From positions 1,310 to 65,309 of the IMG/VR virus record IMGVR_UViG_3300045996_000252: a stretch of 64,000 bases of DNA. One strand, given 5' to 3'. Shown here in pieces: positions 32-57,281 of this stretch. Origin of the DNA: a virus. Numbering within the stretch: position 1 is the stretch's first letter; every line of letters begins with the position of its first letter. The notes below the pieces were generated by a model. That model worked only from the letters and a program-made list of their open reading frames with translations. It was not told where the DNA came from and did no database searches. The position numbers were made by a program, and so were the translations under genes.

Positions 32-108
32 TGGTCAGAACGGCAGGATTTGAACCTGCGACCACTACAACCCCAATGTAGTGCGCTACCGGACTGCGCT
101 ACGCTCTG
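32..108 (-). tRNA. tRNA, anticodon loop reads GGG (Pro?)
   Basis: T-arm rc motif GGATTTGAACC at 46-56. Acceptor stem pairs with G-U wobble. D-arm gcgc/gcgc. Anticodon stem ctaca/tgtag. CCA is encoded (tgg at 32-34). Confidence 0.65.
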
Positions 109-115
109 ATGAATT

Positions 116-190
116 TGGTCAAGGTGTACAGAATCGAACTGTATCCACATGCTCCCAAAGCACGTGTGCGGCCACTACACCACACCAAGA
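116..190 (-). tRNA. tRNA, anticodon loop reads TGG (Pro?); acceptor stem has 2 T-T mismatches
   Basis: T-arm tacag-aatcgaa-ctgta at 127-143. CCA is encoded. Anticodon loop rc is TTTGGGA. Confidence 0.5.
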
Positions 191-267
191 TGGTACCATG
201 TACGAGATTCGAACTCGTATTCTCCTGTTTGAAAGACAGGCTTCCTAAGCCGTTAGAAGAACATGGC
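191..267 (-). tRNA. tRNA-Glu(TTC)
   Basis: T-arm acgag-attcgaa-ctcgt. Anticodon arm cctgt-ttgaaag-acagg. CCA is encoded. Confidence 0.75.
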
Positions 268-272
268 ATGAT

Positions 273-348
273 TGGTAGCCCGCACCAGATTCGAACTGGT
301 GATCTTCACCTTGAGAGGGTGACGACTTTGCCGCTTGTCCAGCGGGCC
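273..348 (-). tRNA. tRNA-Glu(CTC)
   Basis: T-arm accag-attcgaa-ctggt. Anticodon arm tcacc-ttgagag-ggtga. CCA is encoded. Confidence 0.7.
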
Positions 349-351
349 ACG

Positions 352-642
352 CTAATTGTTGATGCGAGCGTGAACCTCACGCACTGCATCAGTTACTTCT
401 TGTACGTCAGCATCACCGAATCGGTTGATCGACTCTGCGATACACGATCCTCTGCATCGTGCAAGAGAAAGGTCTAACGTTTCTGTAAGGATGACTGTAG
501 GCACTCTACGCTTGTCGGTGTCATGATGCGTACGTCGCTCGTACATCTTCATGATCTTGAATCGCTCAACTTCATCAGCACGAGCGCCGGTTGCCGGTGT
601 GCCTACGAAGTTTACGAATGTCTCAGAGTACGCTGTTGCCAT
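352..642 (-). CDS. hypothetical small protein (97 aa) embedded in the tRNA array
   Basis: Internal Met (MATAYSETFVNF...) of the minus ORF 352..687 starts at 642 with a GGGGA RBS-like motif upstream. Codon usage is plausible. The upstream part of the ORF overlaps a tRNA and was excluded. Confidence 0.4.
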   Translation of the reverse strand: MATAYSETFVNFVGTPATGARADEVERFKIMKMYERRTHHDTDKRRVPTVILTETLDLSLARCRGSCIAESINRFGDADVQEVTDAVREVHARINN

Positions 643-658
643 GTAATCCCCTTTGTTT

Positions 659-736
659 TGGTGGAGGCGTGGAGAATCGAACTCCAATTTTGCGGGTGCA
701 AACCGCCCGTGTAGACACCACTAGCACTACACCCCC
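659..736 (-). tRNA. tRNA, anticodon probably TGC (Ala?)
   Basis: T-arm tggag-aatcgaa-ctcca at 670-686. Acceptor stem is 7 bp with G-U pairs. CCA is encoded. Confidence 0.6.
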
Positions 737-808
737 ACATATGGTGTTCGTTTCGTGAACCACTCGTCGGGCTGGTATACCGAAGGTCTGTTTGCGTCAG
801 ACCGCGTT

Positions 809-885
809 TGGCTGGAAGTGAAGGAGTCGAACCTTCAAACGCATGGTTCAAAGCCATACTGCTTTACCAGTTTGCATAACTTCCA
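809..885 (-). tRNA. tRNA-Gln(TTG)
   Basis: T-arm gaagg-agtcgaa-ccttc. Acceptor tggaagt/acttcca is perfect. Anticodon loop rc is CTTTGAA. Confidence 0.75.
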
Positions 886-894
886 ACGCGAATA

Positions 895-970
895 TGGTGT
901 CGCCACACCGGATCGAACGGTGACCTCAAGGGCTTCAACCTAGCGTACAGACCAACTATACGATAGCGAC
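895..970 (-). tRNA. tRNA-Phe(GAA)
   Basis: T-arm caccg-gatcgaa-cggtg. D-arm and acceptor mapped. Anticodon loop rc is TTGAAGC. Confidence 0.7.
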
Positions 971-975
971 ATGTT

Positions 976-1050
976 TGGCTGCGCAGACTTGGATTCGAAC
1001 CAAGATTGCCGGATTCAGAGTCCGTCTTCCTACCATTAGAAGATCACGCA
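976..1050 (-). tRNA. tRNA-Gln(CTG)
   Basis: T-arm cttgg-attcgaa-ccaag. Anticodon loop rc is CTCTGAA. The acceptor register is slightly uncertain. Confidence 0.6.
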
Positions 1051-1055
1051 ATGTG

Positions 1056-1131
1056 TGGCGGTCCCCAAGAGATTCGAACTCTCTGACTCTTGATTGACAA
1101 TCAAGCACCGATACCCTTTGGCTTCGGGACC
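1056..1131 (-). tRNA. tRNA-Asp(GTC)
   Basis: T-loop attcgaa at 1072-1078. Anticodon arm cttga-ttgacaa-tcaag. Confidence 0.7.
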
Positions 1132-1148
1132 ACGCTAATAAGGTTGTT

Positions 1149-1226
1149 TGGTACAGCAGACAGGATTCGAACCTGCACAGCATGCTTGGAAGGCACGAAT
1201 GCTTGACCGTTGAACATCACTGCTGC
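1149..1226 (-). tRNA. tRNA-Gly(TCC)
   Basis: T-loop attcgaa at 1165-1171. Acceptor acagcag/ctgctgc. Anticodon loop rc is CTTCCAA. Confidence 0.7.
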
Positions 1227-1233
1227 ACGTATA

Positions 1234-1310
1234 TGGTCAGGGGCAACGGATTCGAACCGATGCTGCTGGCGTCACAAGCCAGAGTGCTAGGCCACTAACA
1301 CTAGCCCCTA
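1234..1310 (-). tRNA. tRNA-His(GTG)
   Basis: T-loop attcgaa at 1250-1256. Anticodon arm ctggc-gtcacaa-gccag. Confidence 0.75.
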
Positions 1311-1315
1311 ATGAT

Positions 1316-1391
1316 TGGCGCGCCGCAAAGGAATCGAACCCTCACCTACGGGCTTCGAAGGCCCGTGTACTATCCGTTATACGAACGGCGC
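1316..1391 (-). tRNA. tRNA-Arg(TCG)
   Basis: T-loop aatcgaa at 1332-1338. Anticodon arm cgggc-ttcgaag-gcccg. Confidence 0.65.
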
Positions 1392-1397
1392 ATGATT

Positions 1398-1472
1398 TGG
1401 CAGGACGACTCGGATTCGAACCGAGAATAGCAGTTTTGGAGACTGCCGTGATAGCCGTTTCACTATCGACCT
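1398..1472 (-). tRNA. tRNA-Trp(CCA)
   Basis: T-arm ctcgg-attcgaa-ccgag. Anticodon arm gcagt-tttggag-actgc. Confidence 0.75.
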
Positions 1473-1478
1473 ATGATT

Positions 1479-1555
1479 TGGTCGGTACCGTGTGAATCGA
1501 ACACACCTTCACGTGCTTATCAGGCACGCCCTTTCCACCAGACAGGCAGATACCG
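1479..1555 (-). tRNA. tRNA-Ile(GAT)
   Basis: T-arm gtgtg-aatcgaa-cacac. Anticodon arm cgtgc-ttatcag-gcacg. Confidence 0.65.
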
Positions 1556-1625
1556 AAGGCTGCGGCTGACGCACTCCTTGTGCGCCACGTAATCCTCCCG
1601 TGCATAGGAGGGCCACAGAAATGTT

Positions 1626-1700
1626 TGGAGAGCCGAGTCGGGATCGAACCGACACCCTTGAGGGTAAGAACCTCCTGCACCACCGTTGTGCTACCGGCCC
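1626..1700 (-). tRNA. tRNA-Lys(CTT)
   Basis: T-arm gtcgg-gatcgaa-ccgac. Anticodon loop rc is TTCTTAC. Confidence 0.65.
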
Positions 1701-1705
1701 ATGTA

Positions 1706-1780
1706 TGGCGTCCCACACAGGAATCGAACCTGCATCGTATCCTTCGCAGGGATACATCCTATCCGTTGAACGAATGGGAC
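1706..1780 (-). tRNA. tRNA-Arg(GCG)?
   Basis: T-loop aatcgaa at 1722-1728. Anticodon arm tatcc-ttcgcag-ggata. Confidence 0.6.
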
Positions 1781-1786
1781 AATGTT

Positions 1787-1860
1787 TGGTGAGTCCGGTA
1801 GGGATCGAACCTACGACCATGTGCTTAAAAGGCACTTGCGACTACCGCTGCGCCACGGAC
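1787..1860 (-). tRNA. tRNA-Lys(TTT)
   Basis: T-arm gtagg-gatcgaa-cctac. Anticodon loop rc is CTTTTAA. Confidence 0.7.
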
Positions 1861-1867
1861 CCATGTT

Positions 1868-1953
1868 TGGCTGGCATGATAGGAGTCGAACCTATACGTA
1901 TCTTTCAACGCGTGGTTAACAGCCACGTGCGGCTACCATTTCGCCACATGCCA
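1868..1953 (-). tRNA. tRNA-like, 86 nt, anticodon arm reads GTT (Asn?) but carries a 15-nt variable region
   Basis: T-arm atagg-agtcgaa-cctat. Acceptor tggcatg/catgcca is perfect. Anticodon arm cgtgg-ttaacag-ccacg. The 15-nt insert between T-arm and anticodon arm is atypical for Asn. Confidence 0.5.
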
Positions 1954-2423
1954 ACGCTAATACGAGGGTTCTTACGTAGGAATATACCCACAACCTACAC
2001 ATGTAATGTGAGTAGTTTTACCCCATACTCAGGGGTCATATGACAGGATTGTTGGTTCCTGCAAGGCCGGTAACGATCCAATTAACAGTTAGATGACCGT
2101 CCAACTCACGCCGGGTTCCACCCTCACGCTTCGACTTTGGTAAGTCTTGCACAATCCTTACGGTCCCATACCTATGTATTACTTCCGGGGTGGCTGTTAC
2201 ACCACTTGCGCTTTTTACGCTACGTGCCCCGCCTACGCCTCGTTAGAAACGTTATTAGCGGTACATATGTCTGAGGGTTATAAGCCCTCATTATCAAATC
2301 GACGGTTCAGAACCAAGACTTCACCGACAACCCTGCTCAAGCGTCTTACTTACGTGTCGCAAGTGCAGTCGCGAGTTGCACGTGTCCACGACCTCCATCC
2401 GTCTATACCGGACGCTCCTGATT

Positions 2424-2510
2424 TGGTGCCTTGGGAGAGATTCGAACTCTCGTACCCCGAAGGGGACTGGTTTACAGCCAGCCTGCTTTATCCTCTTGCA
2501 TACCTTGGCA
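2424..2510 (-). tRNA. tRNA-Tyr(GTA), class II
   Basis: T-arm gagag-attcgaa-ctctc. Variable arm cccc-gaa-gggg. Anticodon arm ctgg-tttacag-ccag. Acceptor stem has 2 A-A mismatches. Confidence 0.65.
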
Positions 2511-2514
2511 TGAT

Positions 2515-2589
2515 TGGCGACCCTACAAGGATTCGAACCTTGTCCTAAGGCTTAGAACACCCATATGCTGTCCGTTACACTATAGGGCC
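2515..2589 (-). tRNA. tRNA, isotype undetermined
   Basis: T-arm caagg-attcgaa-ccttg. Acceptor gacccta/tagggcc. I could not fold the anticodon arm cleanly. Confidence 0.5.
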
Positions 2590-2594
2590 ATGTA

Positions 2595-2679
2595 TGGCGG
2601 AGACAGAGAGAGTCGAACTCCCACAACCTTTCGGTCATCAACGGGTTCAAACCGCATAAGCACGCCAATGCGTGTCTCC
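2595..2679 (-). tRNA. tRNA-Ser(TGA), class II
   Basis: T-loop agtcgaa at 2611-2617. Acceptor ggagaca/tgtctcc is perfect. Long variable arm. Anticodon loop gttcaaa. Confidence 0.65.
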
Positions 2680-2688
2680 GCGCTAGTA

Positions 2689-2752
2689 TGGACGCCATGT
2701 ATCTGCTTCGAAAAGACTCCGGTGGCATAGCCACGGGGATACTCCGCGTCCG
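2689..2752 (-). other. truncated tRNA-like element (about 62 nt; acceptor-like ends but no canonical T-arm)
   Basis: The ends ggacgcc/cgcgtcc pair. It occupies the slot between two tRNAs with the same atg...tgg punctuation. No TTCGAA T-loop is present. Confidence 0.3.
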
Positions 2753-2759
2753 TATATGT

Positions 2760-2835
2760 TGGTGCAAGTGGCGAGAGTCGAACTCGCGTTCCCCTACTTG
2801 GCAAGCAGGTATGTTGGCCGCTACACCACACATGC
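2760..2835 (-). tRNA. tRNA-Gly(GCC)
   Basis: T-arm gcgag-agtcgaa-ctcgc. D-arm and anticodon arm mapped. Anticodon loop rc is TTGCCAA. Confidence 0.7.
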
Positions 2836-2890
2836 ACAGAATTCAGTTGTTAACGCGGCGTTGCCAGTTGCCGCTCCGTTTGTTGTTACT

Positions 2891-2919
2891 ACTATAGCAG
2901 GGCTGTCAAGGCTTGTCAA
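2891..2919 (-). promoter_or_regulatory. sigma70/SigA-like promoter internal to the tRNA array, firing leftward
   Basis: On the minus strand: TTGACA (rc of 2914-2919), then 17 nt, then TATAGT (rc of 2891-2896). A second TTGACA (rc of 2904-2909) lies only 7 nt from the -10 box. Confidence 0.6.
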
Positions 2920-2937
2920 CCCCTAATTTTGAGAGTG

Positions 2938-3025
2938 TGGCGGATAGTGCAGGATTCGAACCTGCGGTACCTTGCGGTACACTTAGGTAGCAACCAAGCG
3001 CTTTCGTCCACTCAGCCAACTATCC
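2938..3025 (-). tRNA. tRNA-Ser(GCT), class II
   Basis: T-arm gcagg-attcgaa-cctgc. Acceptor ggatagt/actatcc is perfect. Long variable arm gtac...gtac. Anticodon arm cttag-gtagcaa-ccaag. Confidence 0.7.
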
Positions 3026-25344: not shown

Positions 25345-25561
25345 TACGAAGAATTCCTATTTCTGCCGTCATCCGGCGCTCTGCGCTGAGAGGCGTTGCG
25401 GCGGCGTCTTGCTGACCGTAGCGCTCCCTGCACAATTCTGGTTCTCGCTCTAAGTGAGAATCGTCGCTTGTTAAGACCACGGCGAAGTCTCGCACGCTGG
25501 AACGACCCTCTCTCTGTACGGAACTTAGGTCGTCGCTTTGCCTGCGGTCCACGCTTGTCAC
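25328..25561 (-). CDS. hypothetical protein (alternative: Arg-rich ORF 25344..25646)
   Basis: This ORF fills the gap exactly. A competing frame encodes a 100-aa poly-Arg/Lys protein. Confidence 0.25.
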   Translation of the reverse strand: MTSVDRRQSDDLSSVQREGRSSVRDFAVVLTSDDSHLEREPELCRERYGQQDAAATPLSAERRMTAEIGILRNGIDH

Positions 25562-26790
25562 GGACTACTCTCCCCGTCCGGGTGACCGCCTGCTTCATGC
25601 TTCTTCGTCGCTTCCGCTTGCGCTTCCGCCGCTCGTACAACGCCATCTAGCAGTAACTCCTTGAAACGATCCCACGTGAACGCCTTAACGCGTTCAAGGC
25701 CCAATTCGGCGCGACGAGCACGCTCCTTCGGATTCCGCTTCAATGCGAGGATTTCCTTCGCTAGCGCTTTCGGATCAATGTTGGCATACTTAGTGCCTGA
25801 CTTGTGTATTTCCCAATCGTACGGACGGACTCCCACGCCCGCAGGACTCGCAACTTCCCAACCTGCCCCATAACGGGTGACTACGACCGGAACTCCACAA
25901 GCCATCGCTTCCGCGATTGGGAGTCCAAATCCTTCCACTTGTGATGGAAGAACGAAAAGGTCGGCAGCGTTGTACATGTCAACGAGCGTCGGGTCTGATT
26001 CACTGGCTACAGGAATTGCAGCGTTGTGAGCGTCCATCTTCGGATGGAAGACGACCTCGTTATACACGCCATACGCATTCGTGATTATGGGGAGGTTCCA
26101 GCCTTCCAGCCAGTAATTGTTATGTGGTACAGTGTGTGCATATAGGATGATATCCTTTTGCTTGTACTGGTGCTTCAAGATGGACAGCGCCTCGATGAGT
26201 CGCGGCCATTGCTTGCGTCGGACATTCTGCGCTACGCAGATAATGACGAACTTGTCTTCCCAACCGAACATGCGCCGCGTTTCTTCTCGCTTCGCCTTGT
26301 CGGGCTTGAAGTCTGAGTCGATGCCGTGATAAGCATAGTCAATGTCGCGATTAAGCGACTGCTTCGCCACGTCAACTCCGTACTGTGAGCATGTGAACCA
26401 GTGGACACTTGACAAAACTTCTCTCCACTGGTATTCTACTATCGGCTCTCCCTCTATTGGCACATAGCCATAGAAGGGAATGCGGGCCGGGATGGTCTTA
26501 GTGTATGCGGTGAACGTACCCGGATCGCCGGTATTGTATACCACGTCCGCCTGAAAGTCTTCAATGGCATCCTGAACGCTCAAGAGGCCCATGTAGTCTT
26601 TCTCGTGCGGAAGGTATCTAGCCTTCGTCCCCGGTAGTTGCGGCAGGTTCGTCTTGCTGTTCTCCTGCCCCGCCAGATACGCTACGTGGTACCCCGATTG
26701 CATCAGCGTTTCCGCCGCTGCCCGATTGACCTTGCCGAACCCCGTTTGTAAGGCGGGGCTGTCTCCGACGATTAGAATTCTTTTGCTCAC
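25558..26790 (-). CDS. GT-B fold glycosyltransferase (GT4-like)
   Basis: 410 aa. N-terminal 'KRILIVGDSPALQTGFGKV'. C-terminal 'VLPSQVEGFGLPIAEAMACGVPVVVT' (E-x7-E). Confidence 0.8.
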   Translation of the reverse strand: MSKRILIVGDSPALQTGFGKVNRAAAETLMQSGYHVAYLAGQENSKTNLPQLPGTKARYLPHEKDYMGLLSVQDAIEDFQADVVYNTGDPGTFTAYTKTIPARIPFYGYVPIEGEPIVEYQWREVLSSVHWFTCSQYGVDVAKQSLNRDIDYAYHGIDSDFKPDKAKREETRRMFGWEDKFVIICVAQNVRRKQWPRLIEALSILKHQYKQKDIILYAHTVPHNNYWLEGWNLPIITNAYGVYNEVVFHPKMDAHNAAIPVASESDPTLVDMYNAADLFVLPSQVEGFGLPIAEAMACGVPVVVTRYGAGWEVASPAGVGVRPYDWEIHKSGTKYANIDPKALAKEILALKRNPKERARRAELGLERVKAFTWDRFKELLLDGVVRAAEAQAEATKKHEAGGHPDGESSP

Positions 26791-40139: not shown

Positions 40140-40168
40140 TTGACACGGTGGAGCGGAGCGCATAAGGT
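40140..40168 (+). promoter_or_regulatory. sigma70-like promoter
   Basis: TTGACA at 40140-40145, 17 nt spacer, TAAGGT at 40163-40168. It lies 40 nt upstream of the ORF at 40208. Confidence 0.5.
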
Positions 40169-42864: not shown

Positions 42865-43236
42865 GTGCCGTTGACAGGGCTTGACAAGCCTGCTACAGTG
42901 GTGACAACAAACACACCGAACGAGGACAGCACAATGGAACGATACAGAGCATACCAGCACATCATTCGCATCAGCCATGCGGACGAAAGCATGCTTGAGT
43001 CTGCGGCGGCAGAGATTGCTACCGTGACCGCAGCACGTTGGGGCATGGATGGCGCGAACATCACGTTCGGTCGTGGGCTGTGGAAGGGTGATATCGAGTT
43101 CGGTGCTACCATCGAAATCGTTACTCGCGATTCACTTACCAATGAGCACATGCAGAACCTTCGCAATCACGTGACTGCAATGGGACTCACGGCCTTCGTA
43201 ACTGTGAACGAGACTACTGCATTCGAATTGTACTAG
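42865..43236 (+). CDS. hypothetical protein (the real start is probably Met at about 42933)
   Basis: 123-aa ORF; the promoter overlaps its annotated 5' end. Confidence 0.4.
   Translation: MPLTGLDKPATVVTTNTPNEDSTMERYRAYQHIIRISHADESMLESAAAEIATVTAARWGMDGANITFGRGLWKGDIEFGATIEIVTRDSLTNEHMQNLRNHVTAMGLTAFVTVNETTAFELY
42871..42899 (+). promoter_or_regulatory. sigma70-like promoter, family member with a double TTGACA
   Basis: TTGACA at 42871-42876, 17 nt spacer, TACAGT at 42894-42899, then GGTGACAAC. A second TTGACA at 42881-42886 lies 7 nt from the -10 box. Confidence 0.5.
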
Positions 43237-46777: not shown

Positions 46778-46803
46778 TTGACAGGCAGCGGGCCACCTGC
46801 TAT
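46775..46803 (+). promoter_or_regulatory. consensus sigma70-like promoter
   Basis: TTGACA at 46775-46780, 17 nt spacer, TATAGT at 46798-46803, then GGTGG. Confidence 0.65.
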
Positions 46804-47383
46804 AGTGGTGGCACCTACATCTGAATACTCAACCGAGGGTGGTATGCTACGGCTCTGCATGATGATGCTGGCTGAGGTACACGGTGGCCCATGCTTGCAT
46901 GGTGTCAACCAATCCGTCAGAGGCTATAGGCTTGTAACCCCGTGCGGTTGGTATGCTTGAGAGAGGTTGCAAACTCGCTCAGGCAGGTAGGTTGAGTGTT
47001 CAGATGTGGGTCATACTCAGGCTCACAGCGGCAGGAGTGCCGACGATATGATGGCGGGTATCGAGAATGCGGGGCAGCCCCTAGATGCCCGCCATCACAA
47101 ATTTTACCTTGCATAAAAAGCGGAGTCTTCGGAGCCTTCGGAGCCTTCGAAGAATCCGCCAAGAATCCGAAGAATCCGGTTATTTTATACAGGGCAAGTC
47201 ATACGCGGTGGGATAGGATTCCAACTTCTTCTCTGTTGGAGCCTCAGTCCGTTGTTCGCTTGCCCTCAGGGGAGTAGGTGCCCGAGGGAACGAGAAGCCG
47301 CGCTGCCTACTCCCCGGCTTACACACAGGTGGTCACGTGGGCCGAAAGAGTCTCGCGGGTTCTTCCCCGCTTGAGCCTAAACG
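46804..47383 (+). ncRNA. candidate structured non-coding RNA / leader (no ORF of 60 aa or more in any frame)
   Basis: 580 nt downstream of a consensus promoter. Tandem 9-mers at 47121-47180. A 10-bp-stem hairpin pairs ggggagtagg (47269-47278) with cctactcccc (47306-47315). Confidence 0.3.
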
Positions 47384-48924: not shown

Positions 48925-49869
48925 ATGATTATTGGTATTGTCGCGTTCATCCTGTTAGGGCTGATCGCTGCTGGACTGTTCTTTTACGCGTTCAGCGAGC
49001 CGTCTTACAATGGTGAGGGCGGCTTCAAGTTTGGTGCTTTCGGCGCTGGACTTGTTGTTGCGCTGTTCGCCCTTCTTTCATTCGGCTTCACGCAGATTGA
49101 GCCGGGTCACGTTGGCGTGGTTACGTCATTCGGTCAGGTGCAGAAGGAAACGCTTGCTCCGGGCCTACATTACGTGGTTCCTGTTCTGAATCAGGTCACA
49201 GATATGGACGCTCGCGTGCGAAGTCTGCGCGTTGAGGGTTACACTGCCGCATCCAAGGAGCAGCAGGACTTGTTCATGAATATGACCCTAAACTACCACA
49301 TCATCCCTGAGCGTGCAAGTGAGATTGTCGAGCGCATCGGTACTGACTTCGAAGCGAAGATCATCATGCCGAGATTCCTTGACATTCCCAAGAGCATCAC
49401 GGATGATTACGCTACTACCGTTGTTCTCAATTCACGTGACGAAATCCGTGAGCGCTCAATCGAGGCACTTTCAGCGGCGATTGAGAAGTACGGTTTCGTC
49501 GTTGACACCATCAACATTGAGAACTTCGCTTACAGCGCGGAGTACAACGCAGAAATTGAGGCAAAGCAGCGTGCGGAACAGCAGGTTCAAACGGAACGCC
49601 AGATTCTCGCTCAGAAGGAGATTCAAGCACAGCAAGCAGTTGTGCAGGCTCGTGGTGCGGCGGACGCACGCATCGAGAGTGCTCGTGGAGAGGCCGAGGC
49701 GAACAGACTCCTTACTGAGTCTTTGAACCCTGAGTTGATCCAGTGGACCGCGATCCAGAATCTACAGGATAACATCAACATTGCACTCGTTCCGAGTGAT
49801 GGTGGTTTGATCCTTGACATGGGTTCGGCGCTCACGCCGATTGACGAGCCTGCTGGCGAAGGAGAGTAA
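48925..49869 (+). CDS. SPFH / band-7 (HflK/C, stomatin-like) membrane protein
   Basis: N-terminal TM segment, SPFH core (GHVGVVTSFGQV...), then a long Q/A/E-rich coiled coil. Confidence 0.7.
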   Translation: MIIGIVAFILLGLIAAGLFFYAFSEPSYNGEGGFKFGAFGAGLVVALFALLSFGFTQIEPGHVGVVTSFGQVQKETLAPGLHYVVPVLNQVTDMDARVRSLRVEGYTAASKEQQDLFMNMTLNYHIIPERASEIVERIGTDFEAKIIMPRFLDIPKSITDDYATTVVLNSRDEIRERSIEALSAAIEKYGFVVDTINIENFAYSAEYNAEIEAKQRAEQQVQTERQILAQKEIQAQQAVVQARGAADARIESARGEAEANRLLTESLNPELIQWTAIQNLQDNINIALVPSDGGLILDMGSALTPIDEPAGEGE

Positions 49870-50447
49870 TGGCTGACCGAGATCACAAGTACATATTCTG
49901 GATCGACCTTGAAACAACAGGCTCCGATCTGGACACGGTGAACGAGCACAGCGGCGTACGCACTCGACACGAGATTATCGAGATTGGCGCGGTAATCACG
50001 GACATGAAGTTAAACGTACATGATGGGCGGAGCCATGTGATCGGCCACCAGATCGACATGGAGAATGTCGCTCCCGTGGTCGTGGACATGCACACCAAGA
50101 ATGGGCTGTGGAAGGACGTTGCCAAGTCTACGCTGACGATTGGCGAGGCTGACAACGAACTGGCCGAGTGGATCAAGCGTTTCAACGGAAACGACCACAT
50201 GGCGTTTGCAGGCTCAGGCATCATGCACTTCGACCGCAAGTTCATCCGGCGCGATTTGCCTTTGCTGGACAAGCGGATCACGCATTGGGGTCTGGACGTG
50301 GGAGTGATACGCCGGACGTTCAAATTCCTGCTTGGGTCCGAGGAATGGCCCGAGGACAACAAGAGCCATCGAGCCATTGACGACGCGTTGTTCCACATCG
50401 AGGAAATGCGCTTTGCACTTGACAAGATGCGCACGGGTGTGGTATAG
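49869..50447 (+). CDS. orn: DEDDh 3'-5' exonuclease, oligoribonuclease (Orn)/DnaQ-like
   Basis: Exo I 'FWIDLETTG', Exo II 'FAGSGIMHFDRKF' and Exo III 'HRAIDDA'. Size is 192 aa. Confidence 0.7.
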   Translation: MADRDHKYIFWIDLETTGSDLDTVNEHSGVRTRHEIIEIGAVITDMKLNVHDGRSHVIGHQIDMENVAPVVVDMHTKNGLWKDVAKSTLTIGEADNELAEWIKRFNGNDHMAFAGSGIMHFDRKFIRRDLPLLDKRITHWGLDVGVIRRTFKFLLGSEEWPEDNKSHRAIDDALFHIEEMRFALDKMRTGVV

Positions 50448-51533: not shown

Positions 51534-51562
51534 TTGACAGCCAGCCAAGGACCGGCTAAAGT
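51534..51562 (+). promoter_or_regulatory. sigma70-like promoter for the amidoligase operon
   Basis: TTGACAGCC at 51534, 17 nt spacer, TAAAGT at 51557-51562, then GGTGGG. An RBS (aaaggaggagac) precedes the ATG at 51587. Confidence 0.6.
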
Positions 51563-51586
51563 GGTGGGACACAGAAAGGAGGAGAC

Positions 51587-53359
51587 ATGCCACAATTAGA
51601 ACCCATAGAAGAAGGACGAGCGCAGTTCGGCCCCGAGGCTATCGACACTTGCCTAAGACAACGCGAACCGGGTACTCCATGCGTGCCGTGTGGTCCGTCT
51701 ATCCAGCGCCGCGATGCAGGCTGGAATTGGGACGCAAGCCTCGGCCAGTGGATCGAGCCTATGTACGAGCGTTGGGCGCGACGATGGGAAGAAATCTCCG
51801 GGTCATTTGATACCATATACAATGCCACGACTACTACCAATAACACTTTCACAGGCTGGAATTCATATCCACCACCATCTACACAGGAGGCATCACCTAT
51901 GCCGGACTTCAATGGACACAACACGTTCACTCGTGTGAGCACAAACGATAGGATGATCTACTGCTTCCAGTGCGATTCGCGAACCCAAGAAAGCAACATG
52001 TTCACGTGCAGCGAGGAAGGCGACTGGTTCTGTCGCCCCTGTGCTGAGGCGCACATTCACAATGGTGATCGCTGCGATTCGTGCGGGTTCCGCCTGCTCA
52101 ACGGAGGGGCTGCTACCGAGTGCGAAACCTGCGCCGTTGACGTGTGCCATGATCACATGCGACAAGACCACACTGGCTGCGCAATGGGCGGATACGATGG
52201 CCGTGATGACGGACGCTACTCTGGTCGTCCTCCGATTGAGGGCTACGGTCGAGAGGCCACGCTTGAGTATCTGGACGAGGATTACACCTTCCACCCGCTC
52301 GCTCTTGGCAAGCGCGCCGCTGCGGTCGAACTTGAGGTCGAGTGGGACGAGGAAACGAACAACGGTCGGGTGAACCTGCCCTACGCAGTTGGCATCGGTC
52401 ATGATGGCAGCCTTACGAACGGGATCGAAGTTACGACTCCGCCCGCCAAGGGTGCGCGTCTTGCCGAGGTCATGCTGGACACCACTCGCATCCTTGCGGC
52501 CAATGGCTACAGGGGTGAGACAACGTGCGGAATGCACACTCACATCGACCTTCGTGACAAGGTGGAAGACAAGCGGTTCCTATCGCATCTGTTCAACGCC
52601 TTCTTCGCAATCGAGGATATCCTGTACGCCATGCAGGGCGCTTCACGCTACAGCAACTCGTACAGCGTGCCACTGCGAGCCAACTACAAGTTCTTCGACA
52701 TGTACGGTCAGCGGTCGGGTGATTTCGACTACACGTTCTACCGCATGCCTAAGAACCTTGAGTCGCAGCGTGTCATTGCGCGTGAGAAGACGCAGAAGTA
52801 CGGCAGTCCACGCTACGCGGCGTTCAATTTCCACAGCGTCTACTACCGTGGCTCGCTTGAGTGCAGACTGCACGAGGGCACGGTCGATGGTGAGAGTGCG
52901 CTGATGTGGATTGACCTGTTGCAGAGCATCATCGCTCGTGTCGAGGATGGGCATTCGTACTCGGTCATGAAGAATCTTGCGAGCCAGATTGTGACGAAGA
53001 AGAAGGTACGTGCCTTCGCTCGTTACTTCCGGCTCACGGACAAGCAGACTCAGTACGTGATGGACAGAATCGAGAGCGGTCAGGGCTTTGGCTTTGAACT
53101 GCCGGACGGCATCATGTGGGGTGTCCCGATCAAGGGTCGTCCGACTCGCGAGCCTCGCGCTCCGCGTCGGCGCATGCTATACGCTGGCAGCATGGTGACG
53201 TGCCATGCGTGCTCGCACACGTGGTTGCTGGCTGGCAATCAGACAGAGTGCCCGCGCTGTTGGGGTGCCTTGATTGACAGATACGGCGCTAGGACTTACA
53301 ATAGGGTGAGTAGCAATACTTACTACAATCTCAACATTTCATCGTCATCGTTTAGGTAA
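51587..53359 (+). CDS. multi-zinc-ribbon domain fused to a glutamine-synthetase-like amidoligase (Amidoligase_2-like)
   Basis: 590 aa. The N-terminal region (aa 120-200) has at least 5 CxxC pairs. The C-terminal region carries 'TTCGMHTHIDL' and the overall character of a carboxylate-amine ligase. It is co-operonic with the GATase-II gene. Confidence 0.5.
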   Translation: MPQLEPIEEGRAQFGPEAIDTCLRQREPGTPCVPCGPSIQRRDAGWNWDASLGQWIEPMYERWARRWEEISGSFDTIYNATTTTNNTFTGWNSYPPPSTQEASPMPDFNGHNTFTRVSTNDRMIYCFQCDSRTQESNMFTCSEEGDWFCRPCAEAHIHNGDRCDSCGFRLLNGGAATECETCAVDVCHDHMRQDHTGCAMGGYDGRDDGRYSGRPPIEGYGREATLEYLDEDYTFHPLALGKRAAAVELEVEWDEETNNGRVNLPYAVGIGHDGSLTNGIEVTTPPAKGARLAEVMLDTTRILAANGYRGETTCGMHTHIDLRDKVEDKRFLSHLFNAFFAIEDILYAMQGASRYSNSYSVPLRANYKFFDMYGQRSGDFDYTFYRMPKNLESQRVIAREKTQKYGSPRYAAFNFHSVYYRGSLECRLHEGTVDGESALMWIDLLQSIIARVEDGHSYSVMKNLASQIVTKKKVRAFARYFRLTDKQTQYVMDRIESGQGFGFELPDGIMWGVPIKGRPTREPRAPRRRMLYAGSMVTCHACSHTWLLAGNQTECPRCWGALIDRYGARTYNRVSSNTYYNLNISSSSFR

Positions 53360-53372
53360 AGGAGAAACATAT

Positions 53373-54638
53373 ATGTGTGGACTTTGTGGGTCATTCACTC
53401 AGCAGGGCGTAGTCCTGTCGAAGCGTGACCGGACGCAACGTGCACGAGTGCTGGAAGGATTGCTGCTTGCCAATCAGGTGAGAGGTACCGACAGTGCTGG
53501 TGTCGCTGCCATCAAGTACGATGGGACGTACGATCTGTTGAAGGTCGCAACCCATCCCTATAGATTCGTGTCACGCGACGATGTGCAGGCGCTACTGCGC
53601 ACGGATGCTCCGCTCATGATTGCTCATACTCGTATGACCAGCATGGGCAATGATGTGACCGATGAGAACGCCCACCCTTTCGTAGAGGGTAGCGTCATCG
53701 GTGCGCACAACGGCATCATCAACAACTACATGCAGATCGACAGGACTGTGAACGTGGACTCGCAGGCGGTGTTCCGCTTGCTTGACTCGTACCCTGACGC
53801 ATACGATAGGGTGTTCCCGAAGGTGTCGGGATCGTGCGCCCTGTCGTGGTGGGATGCACGTGAGCCAGACGCTATGTTCCTAGTGGCTCACAACAATCCC
53901 ATGTCTGCGGCGTTCGTGCCGAGGATCAAGACGATCTTCTGGACGAGCGTGCTTGAGCACCTTGAGGCAGTGCTGCGCACAGCGTACGGCAACGCGGTGC
54001 AGTACATGGAAGTGAAGAAGGATACGATCTATCGCATTCCGGGCGACAACGTGTACGAGTGGCAGGAAGCCAAGGTTGAGTTCGGAACCGACTCATGGGG
54101 TTCATCCTACAGTTCGCAGATTCGTGTCTACGATCACGGCGGATACGGGTGGGATGATGCCGAGGAAGAAGAACTCTGGCGCACGGGGTTTACCTCTAAG
54201 GGACTGAGTTCTGTCCCAAAAGCGACTGCGGGATCGCCAACTGCCGAGGGCGGCACTACACTCCCGCAGCCAATGACACCAGAGGAGGAGGCCAGATACG
54301 AGTCCTATTGGGACAAGATGATGGCCGAGGACTCAGCAAGAGAGAGCGAAAGCGACTCAAGCGAGAGCGAAAGCGAGCAGCCCGTGAGGCTGCACGCACT
54401 CTCTGATGAGGAGTATGCGCAGATTGCGAACGAGCGGTTTGAGGTAGACGACCTTGACGGAACGCTCGATTGCATGTATTGTGATAAGCCCTTGGGTGAC
54501 AAGGGTGTGTGGGATAACGGGCTACAGATGATGCTGTGTAAGTATTGTCAGAAGTGGTGGGATGATTACGGTCATTACACCACCAAGCCCGTTCCAAGTG
54601 AAGCAGCGGTGAAAAAGTACCCGTTGCTTCTACAGTAG
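53373..54638 (+). CDS. class II (Ntn) glutamine amidotransferase with an acidic linker and a C-terminal zinc ribbon
   Basis: Begins 'MCGLCG' (Cys2 nucleophile). 'AHTRMTSMGN...NAHPF' and 'GAHNGIINNY' are GATase-II motifs. C-terminal 'CMYCDKP...CKYC'. Confidence 0.7.
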   Translation: MCGLCGSFTQQGVVLSKRDRTQRARVLEGLLLANQVRGTDSAGVAAIKYDGTYDLLKVATHPYRFVSRDDVQALLRTDAPLMIAHTRMTSMGNDVTDENAHPFVEGSVIGAHNGIINNYMQIDRTVNVDSQAVFRLLDSYPDAYDRVFPKVSGSCALSWWDAREPDAMFLVAHNNPMSAAFVPRIKTIFWTSVLEHLEAVLRTAYGNAVQYMEVKKDTIYRIPGDNVYEWQEAKVEFGTDSWGSSYSSQIRVYDHGGYGWDDAEEEELWRTGFTSKGLSSVPKATAGSPTAEGGTTLPQPMTPEEEARYESYWDKMMAEDSARESESDSSESESEQPVRLHALSDEEYAQIANERFEVDDLDGTLDCMYCDKPLGDKGVWDNGLQMMLCKYCQKWWDDYGHYTTKPVPSEAAVKKYPLLLQ

Positions 54639-54686
54639 ATCGCTGCGTGAAGGCACCGCGCAGCCACAAGTGAAAGGAGCAAGGAA

Positions 54687-55097
54687 TTGCTTAAGTTTCT
54701 AGTAGCGGTTATGCTACTGTTGGTTGTTGCGGTGCCAGTTATTGCCGCAGAAAAGATCGGGCTTTGCCATGCTACAGGTAGCGTGACGAACCCGTACGTA
54801 TTCATTGTGATCGCGGAACCAGCCGTTGAGGCCGCTCACATGAACAAGGATGGTAGCCTACATGGCGACCACCTTGGGAACCTTGATTTCTATGCAGAAA
54901 GTGAGGCAAAATGCACGATTACAATTACGACGCCGCCGAGTCCGACGCCAAGCGTATTGCCGAGTCCATCGGTGGACCCGACGCCTTCACCAAGTCCGTC
55001 CGTAGAGCCTTCCGAGACTCCTACGAGCGAGCCTTCTACGCCGGTTACTTCCGACGAGACAACGATCAGCGTGCCAGACACCGCGATGGAGAACTAG
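54687..55097 (+). CDS. secreted Pro/Thr/Ser-rich protein (TTG start)
   Basis: Signal peptide 'LLLVVAVPVIAAEK', then a PT-rich linker. Ends in 'SVPDTAMEN', the same tail as the ORF at 48166..48645. Confidence 0.5.
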   Translation: MLKFLVAVMLLLVVAVPVIAAEKIGLCHATGSVTNPYVFIVIAEPAVEAAHMNKDGSLHGDHLGNLDFYAESEAKCTITITTPPSPTPSVLPSPSVDPTPSPSPSVEPSETPTSEPSTPVTSDETTISVPDTAMEN

Positions 55098-56196: not shown

Positions 56197-56370
56197 CATG
56201 CCAAACTTGGAGAAGGCAGAGCGCCGAGACAAGAAGCATGACAAGAAGAAGAATGGCATGCGAGTGAACGGAAAGAACATCGCCCTGTTGCTACGAGCAC
56301 AGGAGAAGCGAGACAAGGAACGACTGGAAAGGAGAGAACGTGAGCGGACAGATGGTGATGACACCGGCTG
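56197..56370 (+). CDS. small basic protein (Xis/DNA-binding candidate)
   Basis: MPNLEKAERRDKKHDKKKNGMRVNGKNIALLLRAQEKRDKERLERRERE..., immediately upstream of the integrase, which it overlaps. Confidence 0.3.
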
Positions 56371-57281
56371 AAATCTTCTGCGAAATGCAGACGAGCGACA
56401 ACACAAAGCGGGCATACCGTAACGATATCAACAAGTGGCAGCAGTTCCTCGCGTCACGAGGCGGGGAAGAAACGACCGAGACTGCGCTTGCGTTCAAGGC
56501 TGCGCTAGAGAACACGTACTCACCTTCCACGGCACAGCGTACGTGGGGCACAGTGGCCGCATTCTACGGCTGGATGAAGGGTACGGGTCGCGTTGACGCG
56601 ACTCCGTTTCATGGGATTAAGTCGCCTACACGACCTATTAATGAAGCCCCACCTGTCCCTAGCGATGAAGCAATTGCCAAGTTACTCAACGCTTGCAAAG
56701 ATGGAACGCCGTATGGCAAGCGTGCTTGGGTCATCATCAGCCTCTTGCTCAACGGACTCCGAGCACAGGAAGTTTGCGACGTTAAGATCAAGGATATTGT
56801 CCGAGACACCAACAACAAGCAGTGGATTCTCAACGTACTCGGGAAGGGTGACAAGTGGAGGGCCGTCCCGCTCACAAGTGAGGCGCAGCAGGCGATCTAC
56901 GAGTTCTTCGAAAACTCTATCACGTGGAACGACAGGTACCTAGTGACGAGCGTGATGGCGGGCGAGAAGTTGAACGTCAAGTCAGTGTGGACTGCGGTTC
57001 GCGTGTACGCTCTCAAGGCAGGGCTTAAGGACGAGAACATTCATCCTCACGCACTGCGCCACCACTACGCCACGCGCCTTGTACGTTCTGGCGTGAACAT
57101 CTTCACGTTGCAGAAGTTGATGGGACATGCTCGCGCAGATACCACACAACGCTACGTCCAGATGGACTACAGCGACCTATCTATCGCAGTGGAACTCGAC
57201 CCGCTACACAAGTCGGACGAGTCACACGGCATCCTATTCGTAGACAAGGCATTGGAGCACGCAGATGACGTTCCCTTTTAA
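56340..57281 (+). CDS. int: tyrosine integrase / site-specific recombinase
   Basis: C-terminal 'HALRHHYATRLVRSGVNIFTLQKLMGHARADTTQRYVQMD' carries the H-x-x-R ... Y catalytic box. Confidence 0.8.
   Translation: MSGQMVMTPAEIFCEMQTSDNTKRAYRNDINKWQQFLASRGGEETTETALAFKAALENTYSPSTAQRTWGTVAAFYGWMKGTGRVDATPFHGIKSPTRPINEAPPVPSDEAIAKLLNACKDGTPYGKRAWVIISLLLNGLRAQEVCDVKIKDIVRDTNNKQWILNVLGKGDKWRAVPLTSEAQQAIYEFFENSITWNDRYLVTSVMAGEKLNVKSVWTAVRVYALKAGLKDENIHPHALRHHYATRLVRSGVNIFTLQKLMGHARADTTQRYVQMDYSDLSIAVELDPLHKSDESHGILFVDKALEHADDVPF

Follow-up and report, generated by a model that had tools for sequence, protein, structure and literature searches.

A zinc-decorated, two-gene amidoligase and glutamine amidotransferase unit, a minimal version of a known phage cassette

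Within a 64,000-nucleotide stretch of DNA from a soil phage (the window), we found two adjacent genes, ORF A and ORF B, which form a minimal, zinc-decorated version of a known phage cassette, without its cyclotransferase or ATP-grasp partners. ORF A (positions 51,587 to 53,359; 590 aa) encodes a zinc-finger-decorated Amidoligase_2 protein with the glutamine synthetase/glutamate-cysteine ligase (GS/GCL) fold of carboxylate-amine ligases, and ORF B (53,373 to 54,638; 421 aa) a stand-alone class-II (Ntn) glutamine amidotransferase-type enzyme (GATase) followed by a linker and a zinc ribbon; these and all features below lie on the plus strand. As to function, we tentatively favour an amidating ligase that depends on glutamine and is split between two proteins, by analogy with MurT/GatD.

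ORF B begins 13 nt after the end of ORF A, and the dedicated promoter and ribosome-binding site that an earlier note on this DNA had assigned to the 590-aa protein can both be located. Ahead of ORF A, 25 nt from its start, the promoter-like element of sigma-70 type reads TTGACA-17-TAAAGT (51,534 to 51,562) and matches 10 of 12 consensus positions; sequence inspection places the putative ribosome-binding site, AGGAGG, at 51,577 to 51,582. That of ORF B, AGGAG (53,360 to 53,364), is directly 3' of the TAA stop of ORF A, and because the gap is so short and this site abuts the stop, coupled expression of an operon-like unit is suggested. Upstream of the amidoligase gene in two related loci (L001 and L005), blocks reading TTGACAG and GCTAnnGT are invariant while their flanks diverge, and AAGGAG is conserved as well. 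The pattern TTGACA-N17-TAnnGT occurs five times in the window against 0.11 expected, the ORF A element being one of the five. The promoter ahead of ORF A is thus shared by related phages, and it is one of a family of such elements spread through this phage. Another promoter-like site, TTGACA-17-TACAAT (53,274 to 53,302; 11/12 match), falls inside the 3' end of the ORF A coding sequence, 71 nt before ORF B. Public gene calls for the contig start ORF A at M200 and ORF B at M82, which removes the zinc fingers of the former and the catalytic cysteine of the latter, so that automated annotation under-reports the features of interest. Because the Cys/His pattern is conserved, and the homologues have conserved N-termini, the long forms are favoured as the real ones.

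ORF A matches Pfam Amidoligase_2 (PF12224) over residues 273-448 with an E-value of 1.1e-16 (61.9 bits; cut-off 22), as well as PHROGs 2443, 7469 and 7631, all labelled 'amidoligase enzyme'. The earlier note had seen a GS-fold ligase in the C-terminal half of the protein and had let its case depend on a profile match to GS-like, GCS2 or amidoligase families; the fold is borne out by this match but its placement is not strictly so, since the domain sits in mid-protein, at about residues 238-500 (52,298 to 53,086). Structure comparison gives the GS/GCL catalytic fold, with YbdK, GCL, GS, gamma-glutamylmethylamide synthetase, Dop and PafA as neighbours. Residues E248/E250/E252, H317/H319/D321/R323 and E425/R427 are invariant in 26 family sequences and fall on predicted strands. 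ORF A is thus predicted, from sequence and modelled structure, to be an ATP-dependent carboxylate-amine ligase of this fold.

Cysteine-rich modules flank the catalytic domain. On its N-terminal side are five CxxC motifs (residues 32, 126, 149, 163 and 179), in agreement with the at least five zinc knuckles proposed for this region. Residues 117-200 (51,935 to 52,186) make up two tandem B-box/RING/FYVE-like cross-brace fingers, modelled by AF2 with pLDDT 78-89, and their Cys and His residues (C126, C129, C141, C149, C152, H156, H158, C163, C166, C179, C182, C187 and H195) are invariant or nearly so across 26 homologues. Cys and His residues between 163 and 199 are spaced as in the B-box1 pattern C-x2-C-x12-C-x2-C-x4-C-x2-H-x4-H. 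When 1.8e9 representatives are searched with a profile of the fingers, multi-repeat zf-B_box/FYVE/Prok-RING_2 proteins are retrieved with E-values down to 4e-16, the value reached by bona fide zf-B_box proteins, and PDB matches include the RING of RNF4 (E 1.4e-3) and the B-box of MID1. ORF A differs from such proteins in having no E3-ligase context, and its direct Pfam matches, those to the B-box families (PF00643 and PF22586) included, are all below the curated thresholds; the ANCHR-like_BBOX profile matches nine of ten family members, with 22.5 bits against 27 at best. In sequence, then, the fingers look like members of the broad B-box/RING/FYVE cross-brace superfamily only. On the C-terminal side, after a conserved KGRP segment, comes a zinc ribbon (residues 536-575; 53,192 to 53,311) with CxxC motifs at 539 and 555, whose cysteines (C539, C542, C555 and C558) are nearly invariant and whose pLDDT is about 91.

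ORF B matches Pfam GATase_6 with an E-value of 4.6e-12 (46.5 bits; cut-off 27) and has the Ntn fold, as expected of the GATase-II that had been proposed here. All the elements previously picked out in it are present, namely the MCGLCG start, AHTRMTSMGN...NAHPF, the acidic linker and the CxxC...CxxC ribbon. The glutaminase domain (residues 1-238; 53,373 to 54,086) has Cys2 as its predicted nucleophile, and R87, N113-G114 and D129, invariant across the family, align with R73, N98-G99 and D123 of E. coli GlmS. On this basis ORF B is predicted to be an amidohydrolase of the class-II Ntn type whose glutamine pocket is intact. Doubt had been raised whether MCG is the true N-terminus, but this is the most upstream in-frame start after a stop, at least 90% of 26 family sequences share M1, C2 and G3, and 23 of the 26 aligned begin MCGL (for two homologues out of 25 the gene call is truncated at the N-terminus). 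In sequence as in structure, ORF B stands closer to PurF and GlmS than to EgtC, and no synthase domain is fused to it. The linker (residues 239-345; 54,087 to 54,407) is acidic, poorly conserved and predicted to be disordered, with pLDDT below 50 at 240-298 and 320-340 and a net charge of -12 over residues 296-350, and it varies in length and sequence between homologues. The four cysteines of the C-terminal ribbon (CMYC...CKYC, C367/C370/C389/C392; residues 355-400, 54,435 to 54,572; pLDDT 76-83) are invariant in 26 sequences, and a conserved WWDxYG tail goes with them. Between the ribbons of the two proteins there is no detectable homology (hhalign probability 12%).

An ORF A homologue directly followed by an ORF B homologue is found in the window and in four related loci (L001, L003, L004 and L005), with other neighbours differing between the two clades. 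Neighbours were considered as a third conserved component or peptide substrate and rejected, being common only to the close clade (the window, L001 and L003) and not to L004 or L005; the relatives lack the 129-aa gene that directly precedes ORF A in the window. Since only ORF A and ORF B are conserved, the simplest assumption is a reaction that needs no more than two enzymes. Wherever a fetched locus contains a GATase (37 of 37), it is adjacent to the amidoligase and on the same strand, while 43 of 75 amidoligase clusters have none in their fetched flanks; some of these carry a gamma-glutamyl cyclotransferase instead, which stands beside the amidoligase in nine clusters among the fetched loci. 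Zinc decoration is not unique to the window pair: among 32 dereplicated amidoligase-GATase pairs from the fetched loci, 20 carry cysteine-rich extensions on both partners, eight on neither, and two each on one partner only (Fisher p 1.6e-4). This co-occurrence is consistent with the add-ons of the two partners being linked, physically or functionally.

Phage cassettes of an amidoligase with a class-II GATase were reportedly predicted by comparative genomics by Iyer, Abhiman, Burroughs and Aravind in 2009. The cassette is present in PaP3, LUZ24, tf, UFV-P2, phiEco32, RIO-1, Arthrobacter phage Wheelbite, and Bacillus and many uncultured phages, a range that takes in PaP3/LUZ24-like Pseudomonas phages, actinophages, marine phages and crAss-like viruses. 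The suggestion that the system was undescribed is not supported, given that annotated pairs exist in cultured phages (PaP3 orf46/orf45 and Wheelbite gp93/gp94), that there are PHROG families and 51 viral structure matches at E <= 0.001, and that the PaP3/RIO-1/phiEco32-type cassette has been discussed in the literature as one that might modify peptidoglycan or exclude superinfection (PMC5498523; PMC10580990). The accompanying statement, that such pairs had been predicted by comparative genomics and not characterised biochemically in phages, agrees with the literature we searched, which yielded no biochemical study of one. Like the cassette, the window has an Amidoligase_2 gene directly followed by an MCG-starting class-II GATase on the same strand, surrounded by early or non-structural genes of the phage, and in PaP3, too, the GATase has a cysteine-rich tail at its end. 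However, ORF A has about 235 extra N-terminal residues with the two B-box-like fingers, and a C-terminal ribbon, all absent from PaP3 orf46 and Wheelbite gp93, and the window proteins are only 21-32% identical to the cultured-phage versions. With three phage GGCT proteins as tblastn queries, nothing better than E 0.27 was found in the window for a gamma-glutamyl cyclotransferase (AIG2/GGCT), an absence that holds at BLAST/phmmer sensitivity; for the ATP-grasp and COOH-NH2 ligase genes, PaP3 orf43 and orf48 gave best E-values of 0.26 and 3.2.

From these features we infer a reaction, a complex of the two proteins and a target. Led by one promoter, the pair would be an amide-bond machine of two enzymes, its chemistry centred on the gamma-carboxamide of glutamine/glutamate. 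ORF A, by analogy with every characterised GS/GCL-fold member, would phosphorylate a carboxylate to an acyl-phosphate that an amine then attacks, and ORF B would hydrolyse free glutamine and pass the ammonia to ORF A, for a net reaction R-COOH + ATP + Gln -> R-CONH2 + ADP + Pi + Glu. The cysteine-rich modules may hold the two proteins together, dock both on a common, probably macromolecular, target, or do both. Such a pair would function like MurT/GatD, asparagine synthetase B or GatCAB, but from different folds. The genes murT and gatD are two co-transcribed genes whose products, a ligase-like protein and a stand-alone GATase, amidate peptidoglycan glutamate (PMC3267633). The likeness, adjacent genes for a ligase and a stand-alone glutaminase, is one of function and not homology, MurT having a Mur-ligase fold and GatD being a class-I (triad) GATase, whereas the window pair combines a GS/GCL fold with a class-II Ntn enzyme. 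Several points weigh against the split ligase. We know of no characterised GS-fold ligase that takes ammonia from a glutaminase partner, and all those characterised activate, to our knowledge, the gamma-carboxylate of glutamate. On free glutamate this would make the net reaction futile, so that the model needs a bound glutamate or another carboxylate. The clusters lacking a GATase indicate that the ligase is not universally glutaminase-dependent, and the modelled linker of ORF B, about 100 disordered residues, looks more like a tether than a rigid ammonia-channel interface.

That tether fits recruitment to a shared substrate, as in the main rival reading, a gamma-glutamyl tag writer and eraser (or protect/deprotect pair), which we consider possible but less likely. 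ORF A would here ligate the gamma-carboxylate of glutamate, or of a similar amino acid, to a target amine (lysine, a polyamine or a cell-wall amine), and ORF B, giving no ammonia, would cleave the gamma-glutamyl amide, as EgtC does after EgtA and PuuD after PuuA. All characterised GS/GCL-fold ligases work, as far as we know, through gamma-glutamyl phosphate, and the structural neighbours of ORF A, YbdK, GCL and GS among them, are exactly such enzymes. Amidoligase genes next to a cyclotransferase, as in Wheelbite gp92, PaP3 orf42 and Bacillus phage M2, agree with this reading too, M2 having the cyclotransferase without a GATase, as if bond-cleaving enzymes were alternatives. But making and breaking the same bond is futile unless a host step intervenes, and no third gene is conserved; the closeness of ORF B to PurF and GlmS and the lack of a cyclotransferase detectable in the window at BLAST/phmmer sensitivity count against it as well. 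ORF B scores only 21.9 bits against an EgtC family cut-off of 218.65, and the window differs from the ergothioneine pathway in lacking EgtB and EgtD, in its phage context and in the zinc modules on both proteins.

It is rather unlikely, in our estimate, that zinc-decorated pairs form a distinct, self-contained class of phage effectors that covalently modify a host or phage macromolecule, with the fingers and ribbons as a targeting or assembly device. An example would be PafA/Dop-like amidation or gamma-glutamylation of specific protein carboxylates or lysines. ORF A has no significant sequence relationship to PafA/Dop and is structurally closer to YbdK and GCL, and no Pup-like gene is conserved beside the pair among the neighbours in the window and related loci.

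We regard as improbable a modification of peptidoglycan stem peptides or a metabolite, in which the zinc modules would serve only structure or oligomerisation. It is what the literature proposes for the PaP3/RIO-1/phiEco32-type cassette, MurT/GatD offers a precedent (PMC3267633), and, as it concerns the target, it is compatible with either an amidating ligase or a tag writer and eraser. The proposal is a hypothesis for which the literature searched held no experiment, it rests on genes for ATP-grasp, COOH-NH2 ligase and cyclotransferase enzymes that tblastn did not find in the window, and a soluble small substrate does not explain correlated zinc modules on both partners.

Those modules may point, as the earlier note proposed, to a macromolecular substrate. 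Zinc ribbons often bind nucleic acids, but B-box/RING/FYVE-type fingers are mostly protein-interaction modules, and a nucleic-acid target is therefore less favoured. Hypermodification of phage DNA bases or tRNA, with the zinc modules binding the nucleic acid and ORF A either modifying a carboxylated base with an amine or amide, or amidating aminoacyl-tRNA in GatCAB style, is very doubtful. Amidoligase and glutaminotransferase Pfam genes co-occur with thymidine-hypermodification genes on viral metagenomic contigs (PMC8989533), and the window encodes ThyX, ribonucleotide reductase and 21 tRNAs (including two tRNA-Gln, two tRNA-Glu and one tRNA-Asn). However, a distance of 17 kb separates ThyX from the pair, whose surroundings are small early genes, and the part of the window proteins that was scanned gave no match to a 5-hmdU kinase, aGPT-Pplase, hydroxymethylase or dioxygenase, so a thymidine-hypermodification context was rejected. 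The fingers of ORF A do not resemble known nucleic-acid-binding fingers, and in the model its KGRP segment is ordered and lies against the catalytic domain (pLDDT 86-94), unlike a free AT-hook, so that this reading of the segment was rejected. A tRNA-dependent amidotransferase, prompted by the tRNA genes, is unsupported as a general reading, Wheelbite having the cassette and no annotated tRNA in the record parts viewed. PaP3 carries tRNA-Asn, Asp, Tyr and Pro.

The cassette is among the most widespread phage enzyme gene groups for which we found no experimentally established function, and therapeutic-candidate Pseudomonas phages carry it. The window version, two genes that always travel together with correlated zinc modules, offers a clean minimal system for finding out what the cassette does, directly open to experiment through its single promoter, its two proteins and catalytic residues that are clear targets for mutation. 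A macromolecular target would mean a new chemistry of host takeover or anti-defence, and a cell-wall precursor would settle a 15-year-old prediction. Were the effector reading true, it would add a new phage post-translational modification, made by a ligase of the GS fold that a class-II glutaminase supplies, a pairing of which we know no characterised example. PADLOC gave no meaningful match for the pair as part of a defence system. We found no near-identical DNA in cultured phages; the window also encodes a terminase, a portal, a tape-measure protein and an integrase, and its closest terminase, that of Brevibacillus phage Emery, is only 28% identical.

The two genes lie on the plus strand, ORF A at 51587-53359 (590 aa) and ORF B at 53373-54638 (421 aa), 13 nt past ORF A, and the stop codon of A is directly abutted by the ribosome-binding site of B. 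The earlier note had assigned A to the amidoligases (Amidoligase_2, GS/GCL fold), and this holds, as the protein gives a significant match to a family profile. The sequence details listed there were all found: the hexamers at 51534-51562, the ribosome-binding sites and the five N-terminal CxxC in A, and, in the class-II Ntn glutamine amidotransferase (GATase) encoded by ORF B, MCGLCG, AHTRMTSMGN...NAHPF, the acidic linker and the CxxC...CxxC ribbon. In the public gene calls of the same contig (P0001 and P0033), the start of A is placed at M200 and that of B at M82; they thus lack 51587-52184, which encodes the zinc-finger module of A, and 53373-53615, with the catalytic Cys2 of B. The long forms of both proteins are favoured by their homologues, in which the Cys/His pattern near the N-terminus is conserved and which begin with MP- or MCG-. 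The MCG of B is the furthest upstream start in frame, and an MCGL N-terminus is found in 23 of 25 aligned B homologues (the remaining two are N-terminally truncated calls), and MCG is thereby upheld as the probable start.

A has few close relatives, with 32 clusters, each of metagenomic origin, in 5.8 billion proteins; the close relatives of B are found on the same contigs. In all five contigs compared, at 33-100% identity, A is directly followed by B, while the remaining neighbours of the pair are common only to a close clade formed by the window and contigs L001 and L003. No DNA-level match to the region was found in cultured phages. The pair had been put forward as an undescribed system, which was not borne out, since, at greater distance, pairs of this kind form the core of a phage cassette that is well known. 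In PaP3 this comprises COOH-NH2 ligase, amidoligase, GATase, ATP-grasp and gamma-glutamyl cyclotransferase genes, in Wheelbite cyclotransferase, amidoligase and GATase genes, and in Bacillus phage M2 amidoligase and cyclotransferase genes; PHROGs and BFVD hold many proteins of this type. Cysteine-rich tails are present in the PaP3 GATase (orf45, L002 6001-7554; CRGCAVC...CEFVCGKC) and in the product of a cyclotransferase-like gene of Bacillus phage vB_BceS-M2 (L007 6527-7186; CSGC...CTCEQCDECG...CEC). Where genome papers name such proteins, the role they give, mostly with reference to Iyer et al. 2009, is in secondary metabolites, superinfection exclusion or modification of the cell wall. Pairs of this kind have indeed been predicted computationally, and no biochemical characterisation of an amidoligase-GATase cassette was found in the searched literature. 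The A-B pair is a formerly undescribed variant of a phage enzyme cassette that is already known and was predicted computationally.

We scanned 116 further amidoligase loci (L008-L123) from genome and viral contig collections, chosen by patterns of this family. All 37 GATases found adjoin an amidoligase on the same strand. Dereplication at 70% identity left 75 amidoligase clusters in all fetched loci, 32 of them with a GATase partner, and in these 32 a cysteine-rich extension, defined as at least two CxxC outside the catalytic domain, is carried by both partners in 20 cases, by only one in 4 and by neither in 8. The zinc-decorated two-gene pair is thus a recurrent subtype and not peculiar to the phage of the window. 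The add-ons of the two partners appear linked (Fisher p 1.6e-4, with phylogeny ignored and loci picked by patterns from this family). Cyclotransferase genes were mainly found beside amidoligases without cysteine-rich extensions (8, vs 1 with them). The contigs of seven loci (L008-L014) were binned as Omnitrophota or uncultured-bacterium MAGs; one of these contigs is 409 kb long.

Ahead of the catalytic domain of A, the N-terminus varies, is disordered in part and carries a single CxxC knuckle. It is followed by a conserved 85-residue Cys/His module (residues 117-200) whose spacing fits two tandem cross-brace fingers. The ANCHR-like B-box family gave sub-threshold matches in 9 of 10 members of the A family, and a profile search of the PDB returned the RNF4 RING, a Polycomb RING, the MID1 B-box, IBR, p44 and FYVE domains. 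When 1.8 billion representative proteins were searched with a profile, the multi-repeat proteins retrieved outside the A family were zf-B_box, FYVE and Prok-RING_2 according to Pfam. Taken together, spacing and profile matches identify residues 117-200 as a predicted B-box/RING-like module, at superfamily level only. Past the catalytic domain, a helical region leads to a KGRP segment, conserved and ordered, and then to a ribbon of four cysteines (539-558). Protein B has an acidic, variable segment predicted to be disordered (residues 239-345) and, at 355-400, a ribbon whose four cysteines are invariant and whose tail reads WWDxYG.

The active site of A, a GS-fold ligase, looks intact, and B, an Ntn enzyme of glutaminase type, has kept its glutamine pocket intact. 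In GlmS, an arginine and an aspartate of the pocket hold the alpha-carboxylate and alpha-amino group of glutamine; by analogy, the substrate of B should be free glutamine or a gamma-glutamyl amide, and not an internal peptide bond. The two genes are obligatorily adjacent and share transcription signals, and the zinc modules of their products are correlated; the two proteins would act jointly on amide bonds of glutamine or gamma-glutamyl type. We tentatively prefer a split amidotransferase, in which B would free ammonia from glutamine for A, because B is nearest to true ammonia-donating enzymes, because two genes complete the unit, and because MurT/GatD, a ligase with a separate glutaminase, is a working precedent (PMC3267633). 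Alternatively, A could make and B cleave a gamma-glutamyl amide. This fits the gamma-glutamyl-phosphate chemistry universal to the fold, the cyclotransferase that is the alternative partner in other phages and the precedent of EgtA/EgtC, and is nearly as good an account, but one two-gene unit would then make and unmake the same bond, and we consider it slightly less likely. As to the target, a protein partner is favoured, since the fingers of A are predicted to be B-box-like; a cell-wall or small-molecule target, as proposed in the literature, is improbable, and so is a nucleic acid, for which the support is circumstantial and which some of the evidence speaks against. Should the zinc modules direct covalent modification of a macromolecule, the finding would be of high interest.

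The sequence TTGACA-17-TAAAGT at 51534-51562 is a 10/12 match, of which about two would be expected by chance in the region. TTGACAG and GCTAnnGT blocks precede the amidoligase gene at equal distance both in L001 and in the distant L005, with diverged flanks. The pattern TTGACA-N17-TAnnGT has five matches in the window vs 0.11 expected, at 2891-2919 (-), 40140-40168, 42871-42899, 46778-46806 and 51534-51562 (+); four of the five share an extended CTGCTAnAGTGGTG core or a near variant, and the TTGACA box is duplicated at two window sites and in L001. The kept blocks and the five matches support the promoter proposed ahead of A, and indicate that the pair heads a transcription unit under one member of a phage-wide promoter family. 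In the region, the sigma-70 consensus is matched best (11/12) by TTGACA-17-TACAAT at 53274-53302 (+), which lies within A at its 3' end, 71 nt ahead of B, and is a candidate site that might allow separate expression of B. Most of the tRNA array is immediately preceded by the promoter-like TTGACA-17-TATAGT at 2919-2891 (-).

The window is a tailed-phage genome (G+C 53%) encoding a large terminase, a portal protein, a tape-measure protein, ribonucleotide reductase, ThyX, a tyrosine integrase and 21 tRNA genes, the latter clustered at 32-3025 (-) and including Gln x2, Glu x2, Pro x2, Lys x2, Gly x2 and Arg x3. The integrase gene (56340-57281, +) is co-oriented with the pair and 1.7 kb downstream, as an integrase is also downstream in the same orientation in L001 and L003; the pair is therefore near the integration module, and the phage is probably temperate. 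Directly past the stop of ORF B, at 54642-54664 (+), is a GC-rich inverted repeat, GCTGCGTG ... CGCGCAGC, with no T run after it and no call in a terminator scan. It is followed at 54687-55097 (+) by a 136-aa ORF that starts with TTG and whose product, hydrophobic at the N-terminus and rich in Pro/Ser/Thr in its tail, looks secreted or membrane-anchored; a Pfam search gave zero matches, and the ORF only weakly resembles the gene found at this position in L001. Upstream of the pair, 48925-50447 (+) encodes an SPFH/Band-7 membrane-scaffold-type protein (314 aa) and, directly after it, an RNase_T-family exonuclease (192 aa) that is kept in L001 at 56% identity. A glycosyltransferase-like gene (25558-26790, -; PHROG 2170, E 7e-33) lies within the structural gene block.
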